Assembly: GCA_963977015.1 (NCBI GenBank)
Contig: CAXBMO010000002.1
Location: 128,001 to 192,000, forward strand
Reading direction: 5' to 3'
Source of the DNA: an uncultured bacterium
Lineage (GTDB): Bacteria; Verrucomicrobiota; Verrucomicrobiia; Verrucomicrobiales; DEV007
DNA: 64,000 nucleotides
A program made the position numbers and the translations under genes. The notes under the pieces are model-generated. The model made no database searches and was not told where the DNA came from. It saw only the letters and a program-made list of their open reading frames with translations. Below, piece after piece: positions 4,475 to 51,966 of this stretch (its first letter is position 1; each line of letters starts with the position of its first letter).

Positions 4475-4556
4475 TACCAAGGACAGGAATCGAACCTGCA
4501 CGGATTGCTCCACTTGATCCTAAGTCAAGCGCGTCTACCAATTTCGCCACCTTGGC
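4475..4556 (-). tRNA. tRNA-Leu (anticodon TAG)
   Basis: Minus strand GCCAAGGTGGCGAAATTGGTAGACGCGCTTGACTTAGGATCAAGTGGAGCAATCCGTGCAGGTTCGATTCCTGTCCTTGGTA: acceptor stem, CTTGA/TCAAG anticodon stem with TAG, long variable arm, GTTCGA T-loop; CCA not encoded. Confidence 0.97.
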
Positions 4557-48504: not shown

Positions 48505-49425
48505 ATGAACGACCACGATCTAACAGCAACTGGCAATCAGTTCGAACAAATTCGCGACGAGTACATCGATCATCTCGACGAGGAACTGGAATTGGAGCTT
48601 TTCGATAGCGCTGAGGATTCCGAGTCCGACAAAGCGGCGGGAGGAGATCTGGCTGCTTTTCGACGAATGTATTTCCGCGAGCTGCATCAATTGCAGATTG
48701 AGTTGGTCAAGCTTCAGGATTGGGTGGTGGCCACCGGAGAGAAAATCGTCGTCCTGTTTGAAGGCCGGGACGCGGCGGGAAAAGGCGGTGTAATCACGAG
48801 GTTTACGCAACGCATGAACCCGCGAGTCTGCCGCGTCGTCGCTCTACCGGCCCCAAGTGATCGCGAAAAAACGCAGTGGTATTTTCAACGCTATGTCCCC
48901 CACCTGCCAGCTGCGGGTGAGATTGTGTTGTTTGACCGCAGCTGGTACAACCGGGCCGGAGTGGAAAAAGTGATGGGTTTCTGCACCGATGCCGAATACG
49001 ACTCCTTCTTTCGCACCGTACCCGACTTTGAACGCATGTTAGTCGACTCGGGAATTCGGCTCTTCAAATATTGGTTCTCGATTCAGGACGAGGAGCAGAT
49101 TTATCGCTTCCGAGCCCGAATTCATGATCCGCTCAAACGCTGGAAACTCAGCCCGATGGATCTGGAATCACGTCGCCGCTGGGAGGACTACACGAAGGCC
49201 AAAGAAGTGATGTTAAACAAAACCCACTTTGAGTATGCGCCATGGTGGGTGGTGCCCGCCGGAAACAAAAAGCGCGCGCGGCTCAATTGCATCGACCACT
49301 TCCTGAACCAATTGCCGTACGAAGCAATCAAGCGGAAGGATATCGAGCTTCCATCAAGGGTTCATCACAAGGACTACGACCGGCACCCCGTCCCTGACAC
49401 AATGATCGTTCCCCAGAAATACTAA
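48505..49425 (+). CDS. ppk2: Polyphosphate kinase 2
   Basis: FEGRDAAGKGG, FDRSWYNRAGVE, WKLSPMD. Confidence 0.96.
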   Translation: MNDHDLTATGNQFEQIRDEYIDHLDEELELELFDSAEDSESDKAAGGDLAAFRRMYFRELHQLQIELVKLQDWVVATGEKIVVLFEGRDAAGKGGVITRFTQRMNPRVCRVVALPAPSDREKTQWYFQRYVPHLPAAGEIVLFDRSWYNRAGVEKVMGFCTDAEYDSFFRTVPDFERMLVDSGIRLFKYWFSIQDEEQIYRFRARIHDPLKRWKLSPMDLESRRRWEDYTKAKEVMLNKTHFEYAPWWVVPAGNKKRARLNCIDHFLNQLPYEAIKRKDIELPSRVHHKDYDRHPVPDTMIVPQKY

Positions 49426-49429
49426 GGTC

Positions 49430-49750
49430 AGGGGGTCCCGTCCTGGCAACCAGCGCCCTCTCGTAGAATTCCAGCCAATGACGACCGGATTCTAGGAAGA
49501 CAGATGAGAAATCCTCAATGTTCGGATTCTCGCTGGAGCCAAGAAGTTCACCTCAAATTGGAGGCAAAGGGACGTTGGCCTTCAACCAACACGTTGATTT
49601 TCATCAATTGGGGGCCACGCGATTAACGTGGAAAGTTCCCCCTCCCGCGAACGGGCGCCATCTGGCGTCTAAGTGCTTTCCCAAAGGAAAGCGGAGCTGA
49701 AAGAGAAGCCTCTTCAGCAGATTTTGAGTTCATTCCAATAATGGACTGCA
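49430..49750 (-). ncRNA. Candidate large structured non-coding RNA (unassigned family; may extend to about 49950)
   Basis: About a dozen consecutive hairpins plus a nested multiloop; G-U pairs and GAAA/UUCG loops favour the minus strand; no credible ORF. Confidence 0.6.
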
Positions 49751-49962
49751 TGTATTATTCTTTCTAAAGCCTGGCGGGTTAGTGTCGCTTATCTCACTTC
49801 AACCGAGAAACCACAGAAAACGCAGCACCACAGAAATTGCAAAACAAGCCACGGCCAGGATGAAAGCAGGCTCGACGCGTTTGGAGTACGGGCAAGCCCT
49901 TTCCCCGCATTTCTCGGGAAATACGATGATTCACCTGGCAACGGAAAGAAGCCTGAAGGCGA

Positions 49963-51966
49963 TTAAGCCATCTCGCCGGCTACCCGAACGACATTCGCCG
50001 CCGTCATGCCAAGTTCTTCCATCACGGTGTCGCCCGGAGCGCTGATGCCAAACCGGTCAATCGCGATGACTTCGCCTTCGCAGCCAACGTATTTCCACCA
50101 AAGCCCGGAAACACCGGCTTCGATCGCGATACGCTTGGTGCAACTCTTCGGCAGCACTTCCTCCCGGTATTCGGCAGGCTGGCGGTCAAAACGCTCCATG
50201 CAGGGCATGGAAACCACCCGAACGCCGTCTCCGAGTTCCTTCGCCGCATCGATCGCGTGCTGAAGCTCGCTGCCCGTTCCGATCAGGATCATTTCGAGAG
50301 GAGCGGTCTCCTTTTTCGCAATGTAAGCACCACGATAAACGCCTTCCCTTCGCTCCATCACGGGAATCTGGCTTTGATTGGGAACATTCTGGCGCGTCAG
50401 CAGAAGCATCGTCGGTCCATCGGTCCGCTGCAATCCTGCGGCAAACGCTCCGGCAGTTTCTTCAGGATCGGCGGGACGAATCACATCCAAGCCCGGAATG
50501 ACCCGGAGTCCGCTGCAGGTTTCGACGGGCTGGTGGGTTGGACCGTCTTCGCCAACACCCACGGAATCGTGCGTGAAAATGTAAAGGACCGGCAATTTGG
50601 CCAAGGCGGCCAAACGAATCGACGGACGGCAATAGTCGGCAAACACGGCAAACGTCGCACCGGAAGCGCGGAAAATCCCGTCATACGCAAGTCCGTTCAT
50701 GATCGCTCCCATCGCGTGTTCGCGAATCCCGTACCAAATGTTGCGCTGGGTGTAATCTTCGCGCGAGAGATCGCCGCTGCTCTTGATGTAGTTTTTGGTC
50801 GACCCGTAGAGGTCGGCACTTCCCGTGACGAGAAGGGGCATCGACTCGGCAATCGGCTGGATGACGGCACCACCTGCGGCGCGTGTCGCCATTTTGTCGT
50901 CCGGTCCAAACTCCGGAATCTCGTTGAGCAGATTGGAAGGCACAAACTTGGCAATTCCCTGGGTCAACGTCTCGGAGAGCTCGGGATTTGCGGCTTTCCA
51001 TGCTTCGTATTTGGCTTCCCAAACTGCGTGAGCCTGAAGCAACGCAGCTTTTCGCTCCGCGAAATACGCCTTAACCTCGTCGGAAATGTAGAACTTCTCT
51101 TCGGGCAACCCAAGCCCTTTGCGGGCTTCGTCCTGGAACTTGATACCTCCTTCGCCGTGACCAGCCGCGGTTCCGGCAACCTGAGGAATGCCCCGCCCAA
51201 TCTCGGTTTTCACTTCGATCAACTTCGGCCGTCCATTGTCATTGGCTTTGGCCTCGGCGACTGCTTTTTCGATCGCAACAAGATCATGTCCGTCAATCGT
51301 GACGGTGTCCCACCCCATCGCTTCAAATCTGGCGGTGGCGTTTTCACTTTGCGTGACTGCCGCCATCGCATCGAGCGTGACGTCGTTTGAATCGTAGATC
51401 AAAATGAGGTTGTCTAGCCCCACATGCCCGGCAAAAGCTGCAGACTCATTCGCGACACCTTCCTGAAGGCAACCGTCTCCGGCCAATGCAATCACGTGGT
51501 AATCAAGAATCTGATGATCGGCGGTATTGAAGCGCTGACCGGCCATTTTTCCGCTCAATGCGTAGCCAACCGCGTTTCCAATTCCCTGACCGAGTGGCCC
51601 CGTGGTTGCTTCGACGCCGGGCGTCTCGTCAAATTCCGGGTGGCCTGGAGTCGTAGAGTGAAGCTGGCGAAAGTCTTTCACCTGCTGCAAAGGCAAATCA
51701 TATCCCGACAAGTGAAGCCAGCTGTAGAGGAACATGGAGCCGTGTCCTGCACTCAGCACGAAGCGATCGCGATTGATCCATTTCGGAGCATCGGGATTGA
51801 ATTGCATGGAATGCCCAAAAAGCACCGCTCCAACTTCCGTCGCACCAAGTGGCAATCCAAGATGTCCTGATTTTGCTTGAGCAACAGCGTCGAGGGAAAG
51901 CCCACGGGCAATGGTGGCGGCTTTCGCGAGAATTTCTGGATTCAACTCCTGGGTACCTTGGCTCAT
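49963..51966 (-). CDS. tkt: Transketolase
   Basis: [49 protein letters not shown]. Confidence 0.98.

Follow-up and report, generated by a model that had tools for sequence, protein, structure and literature searches.

The cold-shock gene cspA of Escherichia coli has a long 5′ untranslated region (UTR) that serves as leader and thermosensor, and DEAD-box helicases are typical cold-shock partners. Transcribed bacterial pseudogenes are gene remnants that keep their promoter and leader. Chlorobi-RRM RNAs are linked to genes for RRM proteins, and we know of no control element in the leader of an RRM gene that has gone beyond proposal to a test. Weinberg et al. (2010, PMC2864571) give Chlorobi-RRM (RF01697) as a likely cis-regulatory RNA of Chlorobi. 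We analysed a stretch of 64,000 nucleotides (nt) from an uncultured member of the Verrucomicrobiales (contig CAXBMO010000002.1, positions 128,001–192,000; ‘the window’), in which a 537-bp gap (49426–49962) separates the convergent genes ppk2 (plus strand) and tkt (minus strand). A preliminary description had proposed a large structured non-coding RNA here. We find a new RNA of that kind unlikely; comparison with related genomes indicates that the gap is probably a vestigial minus-strand transcription unit for a small RRM-type RNA-binding protein (gene rbp). The folded RNA in the gap would be an mRNA remnant, consisting of a leader, a broken coding part and 3′ structures, whose protein is gone.

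The locus resembles Chlorobi-RRM in having a structured, presumably cis-regulatory element in the 5′ UTR of small RRM-type genes, but it gives no match to that family at E ≤ 10, belongs to another phylum, is found here in two genera and, in the genome that holds the window (G000), precedes a decayed open reading frame (ORF). Its likeness to the cspA leader lies in a length of about 110 nt and an extended hairpin before an RNA-chaperone-type gene, which in G001, a relative of the same genus, is followed by a DEAD-box helicase gene; here, however, there is no Rfam match and the hairpin is not unusually stable. As in transcribed pseudogenes, the coding core is lost and the flanking expression signals are kept, at the position of an intact gene in a relative; the differences are that this remnant is unusually hairpin-rich compared with intact orthologues and that its non-coding signals are kept in two species.

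DNA-level BLAST of the gap against 60 relatives and its own genome returned the gap itself alone and also missed a true homologue in G002, a further genome of the same genus. There, a homologous element lies directly after the ppk2 orthologue and a gene other than tkt stands at its far end, so it is ppk2, not tkt, with which the element moves. Neither ppk2 nor a homologue of the gap was present downstream of tkt in 28 relatives. Conserved blocks of G000 and G002 keep the same order, with spacings of 18/18, 22/22 and 108/107 nt. From the 171-column alignment of these two copies we made a covariance model (R1), which, run against the family's 134 species representatives, gave one further convincing match, to G001, over its full length (positions 1–171, E 7e-8, 48.8 bits). 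Between the end of this match and the ATG of an 81-aa ORF with a Pfam RRM_1 domain (5.4e-16) lie 9 nt, and the DEAD-box helicase gene comes next. A model that adds G001 (R2) matches G019 (E 1.7e-5) and G154 (E 9.4e-5), both of genus g17, at positions 1–127; in both, an orthologous rbp gene has its start codon exactly where the leader stops. The window, being part of the training set, scores 120.9 bits with R1 and 112.1 bits with R2. Placement at an RRM start codon holds for G001, G019 and G154; in G000 and G002 the ATG at the end of the leader begins an ORF of 42 or 33 codons that lacks an RRM domain. Among named relatives of the rbp protein, those that score best come from metagenome-assembled genomes of Verrucomicrobiia and Verrucomicrobiales.

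The shared element contains a long imperfect leader hairpin (5′ UTR) of about 95 nt (49768–49861, minus strand), with 29 consensus pairs in alignments of three and five species. With three species aligned by MAFFT, 86.2% of cells are paired, compared with 78.8% after shuffling (0 of 500 shuffles reach the observed value), and eight pairs change on both sides (3 of 500). In the five-species, model-fitted alignment the paired share is 83.2% (shuffled: 74.3%; 0 of 500), two-sided changes affect 11 pairs (shuffled: 5.7; 0 of 500), and controls slid along the alignment drop to 36–43% paired. Independent minimum free energy (MFE) folds of G000 and G002 have 20 pairs in common (null mean 1–2; 20 reached in 3 of 400 and in 0 of 400 permutations). 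Between these two genomes, three changes in helix 1 of the leader are two-sided. The leader thus appears to be a small, covariation-supported RNA for RRM-protein genes, narrowly distributed over two genera and without an Rfam match. A selected RNA structure on the minus strand of the gap, as previously proposed, seems to us real for this hairpin, which covariation among homologues supports in five species.

The distribution is narrow by every search made. A third model trained on all five copies (R3) matched 5 of the 134 family genomes, all of them training sequences, and none of the other 129; with filters off, its best E value over 27 other orthologous rbp loci was 0.93. Across an order sample of 151 genomes, from which G001 and G002 were left out, structure-aware models were significant in G000 and gave no significant match in the other 150. 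R1 and R3 each find a single place in G000, and the intact RRM genes on contigs C12 and C15 lack this leader. A metagenome scan with ppk2 recovered 80 loci of at most 72% identity, none of which has both conserved blocks together. Weaker candidates were set aside: model matches in G145 (E 0.2), G010 (E 0.9) and G215, G038 and G057 (E 0.04–0.07) do not adjoin RRM genes, and the pattern TTAGACGCC-N5-12-GCCCGTT occurs in 3 of the 134 family genomes (G000, G002 and G005, where it looks like chance), with 5 matches to a reversed control.

The leader runs into a likely ribosome-binding site (RBS), the Shine-Dalgarno-like purine stretch UAGAAAG (49760–49766, minus strand), 8 nt before an ATG at 49751. 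At the end of the leader UUAGAAAG is invariant in G000, G002 and G001, and G019 and G154 have AGA..AAGAAUA. In the 171-column alignment of G000 and G002 the leader has 51% identity and a single indel, of 1 nt, whereas four-fold sites of the adjacent ppk2 are 38% identical, near saturation at an expectation of 32% from composition; selection has therefore acted on the non-coding signals during much of the period since the two species diverged.

Upstream of the leader, conservation is concentrated in three blocks with unconserved sequence between them: an A-rich block, TTG(A/C)C(A/C/T) (TTGCTT in G001) and GA(G/C)nnT. In the window, on the minus strand, these are AGAAAUG, 5 nt and AAAG (49897–49914), with identical spacing in G002 and counterparts in G001 and at a G010 locus; the conserved block CTTGCCCGT (49888–49896), recognized by its cross-species conservation and containing a −35-like TTGCCC (49890–49895); and a −10-like GAGCCT (49868–49873), 16 nt after the −35-like hexamer, a site that reads GAGCCT, GAGGAT or GACUCU in the five aligned leader copies. 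With hexamers kept and spacers variable, we read this pattern of conservation as a putative promoter, in which the A-rich block would be an upstream promoter element and transcription would start near 49861. Of 30 orthologous rbp loci, 6 have the motif TTGnCn, 15–17 nt, GA(G/C)nnT at a distance of 145–154 nt upstream of the ATG, against 0.97 loci on average after shuffling (0 of 200 shuffles reach 6); in the window the distance is 144 nt. Searched in its own genome by regular expression and nhmmer, the promoter-like block is significant at this locus alone (11 regular-expression matches, 7 for the control). Sigma-54 and extracytoplasmic-function-type promoter readings were dropped on spacing, judged by eye. 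A locus in G010 (C208; L149 1380–1700, minus strand; R1 E 0.89) has an A-rich block, TTGCCT, 16 nt and GAGGCT about 210 nt 5′ of an FKBP/SlyD-like isomerase gene; the arrangement closely resembles the promoter-like region of rbp, with which its 5′ blocks align by eye.

The MFE fold has a hairpin, GUAUUUC-CCGA-GAAAUGC (49907–49924, minus strand), 38 nt 3′ of the tkt stop codon; its 3′ arm shares bases with the A-rich block that precedes the promoter-like −35. Near-identical strains covered the gap in pieces, in DNA contigs from four runs labelled marine or seawater metagenome or ‘organism A’. One contig of run X6 has a 9-nt insertion behind 49914 that, by our reading of the sequence, would lengthen this 7-bp hairpin by about 5 pairs; the other variants in the gap are 49433 G>A (X6) and 49708 G>A (X7, in a loop).

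Downstream of the ATG we find what looks like the wreck of the rbp gene. A vestigial ORF of 42 codons (MQSIIGMNSKSAEEASLSAPLSFGKALRRQMAPVRGRGNFPR; 49623–49751, minus strand) occupies the position of the intact 81-aa RRM gene of G001. The earlier statement that the gap has no credible ORF is right in that an intact gene is absent, but it passes over this ORF, which stands behind an RBS-like AGAAAG. The counterpart in G002 has 33 codons (counted by eye) and is unlike that of G000 except for a short RR..GA stretch. The closing part of the ORF and the bases just past it, UUAGACGCC...GGCGCC...GGGGG...CAAUUGA (49604–49672, minus strand), can be aligned to the final ~70 nt of the intact rbp gene of G001, stop codon included, with a local z of 5.9 (0 of 300 shuffles as good); the G002 counterpart has z 2.96 (4 of 300). 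From the remnant ATG to the old stop (49604–49606) is 148 nt, compared with 246 nt in G001. Rbp orthologues of the G001 type in other genera have 59–71% identity. The best matches in G000 reach 50–51%, and in G003 55%, so that no intact orthologue was found in the very place where there is a remnant, a pattern that fits a lost gene. Between G000 and G002 the 3′ block is conserved at the level of nucleotides and does not follow one common reading frame. Two closer readings of the remnant were rejected as not significant: its N-terminal codons as the RRM N-terminus (9 of 22 identical, by eye), and RGFSF in another frame as the old RNP-1; the two exclude each other, since both use the same bases.

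Put together, the vestigial unit would begin with promoter-like DNA (A-rich block, −35-like TTGCCC, 16 nt, −10-like GAGCCT), and its transcript, starting near 49861, would run through the ~95-nt leader hairpin to the RBS and the ATG at 49751. The 42-codon ORF that follows would no longer encode an RRM fold, being some 100 nt shorter than the intact gene and alignable to its 3′ end in local context only. The hairpins and the nested domain beyond would probably end and protect the transcript where it meets convergent ppk2. In the intact relatives, by analogy, the leader would most likely control production of the RRM protein, through autoregulation or temperature.

Several results count against a vestigial rbp unit. 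In the leader, the consensus fold energy of the two-sequence alignment is no better than that of column shuffles (z +0.08), threading G000 and G002 on each other's fold does no better than permutation, and the hairpin is thermodynamically ordinary, with z −1.4 for the segment that holds it (minus positions 1–205 of the gap) and +0.5 for the G001 leader alone. The promoter-like site was not flagged by a sigma-70 consensus scan, and its −10-like hexamer agrees with TATAAT at two positions only. As for the coding part, the 42-codon ORF meets no Pfam family at E ≤ 10, RRM_1 (PF00076) included, where the G001 ORF scores 5.4e-16; a protein profile of 30 orthologues did not find the remnant in the six-frame translation of G000 at E ≤ 1000; direct scoring of the three minus frames of the gap gave as sole match the five residues RGFSF, in the other frame, at −4.9 bits; a DNA profile of rbp coding sequences had no match at the remnant; and blastn of the G001 coding sequence against the whole of G000 at E ≤ 50 did not list the gap. 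The G001 locus, with its gluQ-like gene and DEAD-box helicase, has no neighbour gene in common with the gap locus, so orthology has to be argued from sequence alone. Just 5′ of the DEAD-box helicase start, G001 (L147 2120–2184) and G000 (C16:8141–8198) have a 59-nt blastn match (85%, E 2e-7); this conserved helicase 5′ region may be a second leader of an RNA-chaperone gene.

We next consider the folding of the gap, which lies between ppk2 (48505–49425, plus strand; Pfam PPK2, 5.7e-107) and tkt (49963–51966, minus strand; Pfam Transketolase_N, 3.6e-108). Measured as z against dinucleotide shuffles, the minus strand of 49426–49962 is exceptional, at −207 kcal/mol against a shuffle mean of −174.2 (z −4.83; 0 of 100 shuffles as stable), with a centroid nearly identical to the MFE structure. 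The plus strand reaches −170.8 kcal/mol (z −1.16; 12 of 100). Random 537-nt windows of G000 (n = 14, both strands) have a mean z of +0.13 (s.d. 1.08, minimum −2.96), and their strands differ in z by 2.6 at most. All the stems listed in the preliminary description recur in the minus-strand MFE fold within a few bases, with their UUCG and GAAA loops. G-U pairs number 25 of 173 in the minus fold and 14 of 150 in the plus fold; in the hairpin array they number 3 of 53. A long-range helix joining 49903–49906 with 49431–49434 is likely a folding artefact of the model, part of it probably lying upstream of the transcript start placed near 49861.

Segment by segment the signal is uneven. Minus positions 1–205 (49758–49962) have z −1.4; positions 206–389 have −3.8 (minus strand) and −3.1 (plus strand); and positions 390–537, the nested domain, have −4.5 and −0.3. 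The strong folding signal is confined to the 3′ part, that is, the hairpins and the nested domain, and the stems of positions 206–389 are nearly symmetric palindromes, as the similar z of the two strands shows. The hairpin array consists, on the minus strand of the MFE fold, of 49696–49718, 49675–49692, 49656–49667, 49644–49655 (UUCG), 49610–49642, 49594–49607 (GAAA) and 49574–49590. Its short, nearly perfect stems (49574–49718) lie inside and just after the vestigial ORF; the fold also has a hairpin at 49734–49745. The nested domain (139 nt, 49435–49573, minus strand) abuts the ppk2 stop, is closed by 49435–49439 with 49569–49573 and contains two AGAAUCC-type hairpins; its z is −4.53 for the minus strand, with 0 of 60 shuffles as stable, and −0.27 for the plus strand, and 8 of its 53 pairs are G-U. 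It has no second copy in G000 and no counterpart in G002, and on the predicted fold it may be the 3′ end structure of the minus-strand transcript. The 3′ half of the G002 element is hairpin-rich too (z −3.8 and −3.6), with stems that differ in sequence from those of G000. An intact RRM protein of G000 (C15:107157–107573, plus strand) has a long Gly/Arg-rich C-terminal tail whose GGY/CGY codons give a sense-strand z of −5.0.

No curated RNA family explains the gap. At gathering thresholds Rfam finds only a tRNA in the whole window (4475–4556, minus strand, 58.6 bits), and cmscan of 49350–50050 with 4227 families at E ≤ 10 yields four matches, all at E ≥ 5 and far under their own thresholds. MISL, a candidate that the preliminary description wanted excluded, is not among the four; it is an Rfam family (PMC10925082). 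Of the known large bacterial RNAs, OLE, GOLLD, ROOL, HEARO, raiA, 6S, RNase P and tmRNA gave no match at gathering thresholds or at E ≤ 10. In a test for repeat elements (repetitive extragenic palindromes (REPs) or elements like miniature inverted-repeat transposable elements), the whole gap matched itself alone in G000, and three sub-segments gave chance matches of 15–20 nt and nothing else. In G010, 3′ of the ppk2 orthologue (L036), an IS200/RAYT-like transposase ORF lies between inverted G+C-rich palindromes of the CCGGGGTTGAGCGAAGCGAGGCCCCGG type, which by eye resembles a REP-associated transposase locus.

Among the alternatives, the one that fares best holds that the rbp mRNA, having lost its coding capacity, is kept as a structured RNA, either as a decoy titrating whatever binds the leader (paralogous RRM proteins or another regulator) or as a convergent antisense RNA that fixes the 3′ terminus of ppk2. 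Both remnant-bearing species keep the promoter-like blocks, leader hairpin, RBS, ATG and UUAGACGCC..GCCCGUU..GGGGGAA despite near-saturated ppk2 sites, which tells against a purely dead remnant, and the three two-sided changes in helix 1 fall between these same two species. Folding of the coding remnant points the same way: from ATG to old stop it has z −3.36 and −3.01, the mean for intact orthologous coding sequences (n = 14) being −0.73, and the G002 remnant is hairpin-rich as well. A 3′ block conserved as nucleotides and not as a reading frame, and a nested domain stable on the minus strand only, would also suit such an RNA. Yet only two genomes carry a remnant, and their decays may be recent and independent, in which case the conservation would date from the era of the intact gene; the nested domain is not common to G002; and 3′ flanks in the family fold about as well, 8 of 28 tkt flanks having z ≤ −2.9. 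The points in favour of a decayed mRNA kept as RNA are equally compatible with recent, independent decay plus ordinary hairpins at 3′ ends. We regard retention as a structured RNA as possible but unlikely; the specific proposal, that a retained rbp transcript acts as a decoy or sponge tuning the remaining RRM proteins or as a convergent RNA defining the ppk2 3′ end, we put forward as speculative and doubtful.

A second alternative treats the hairpins as 3′-end or terminator structures of convergent ppk2 and tkt, with the rbp leader homology incidental to the folding. The almost strand-symmetric array, poor in G-U, fits this idea, as do a terminator-like site on the plus strand downstream of ppk2 (49574–49590, from a consensus scan) and the fact that in G000 and G002 alike the hairpin-rich half adjoins the ppk2 stop. 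Structured 3′ flanks are also common in the family (z ≤ −2.9 in 8 of 28 tkt flanks, mean −1.75, and in 12 of 26 rbp flanks, mean −2.48); given these means, we dropped the notion that rbp 3′ flanks are unusually structured. The leader, RBS and ATG are nevertheless left unexplained, and the nested domain that abuts ppk2 is stable on the minus strand only, with z −0.27 on the ppk2 strand. Moreover, the scan of 49300–50100 for a G+C-rich stem, short loop and U tract found no site on the minus strand, and none was found on either strand of the G002 gap, where the fold shows a long stem enclosing an inner hairpin, followed by UUUUCAGUUUUU, a form beyond the loop limit of the scan. This explanation therefore strikes us as improbable. 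In the control set, the first 200 nt 3′ of tkt are strongly structured on both strands in G019 (L013; z −8.4/−9.0) and G008 (L012; −5.3/−4.5).

Finally, a stand-alone RNA of ~500 nt spanning the gap, whether ribozyme or ribonucleoprotein scaffold, would account for the whole-gap z, the agreement of centroid and MFE, the tetraloops and the lack of an Rfam match, but we consider it extremely improbable, since its 5′ third is promoter-like DNA plus a leader that, in three species, runs up to the start codon of rbp, its 3′ domain is unconserved even inside the genus, its closing helix lies partly in promoter-like DNA, and it was not found in the other 129 family genomes or the other 150 of the order sample.

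The vestigial rbp unit that we favour illustrates that the remains of a gene can be mistaken for a large structured non-coding RNA: strand-specific z, tetraloops and absence from Rfam failed to separate the readings, and homologues at the intact gene did so. Were the decayed transcript indeed retained as RNA, it would be a prokaryotic counterpart of regulatory pseudogene RNAs, and if the remnant is expressed and bound by the RRM proteins of the organism, it would be a rare case of a bacterial mRNA reused as a regulatory RNA.

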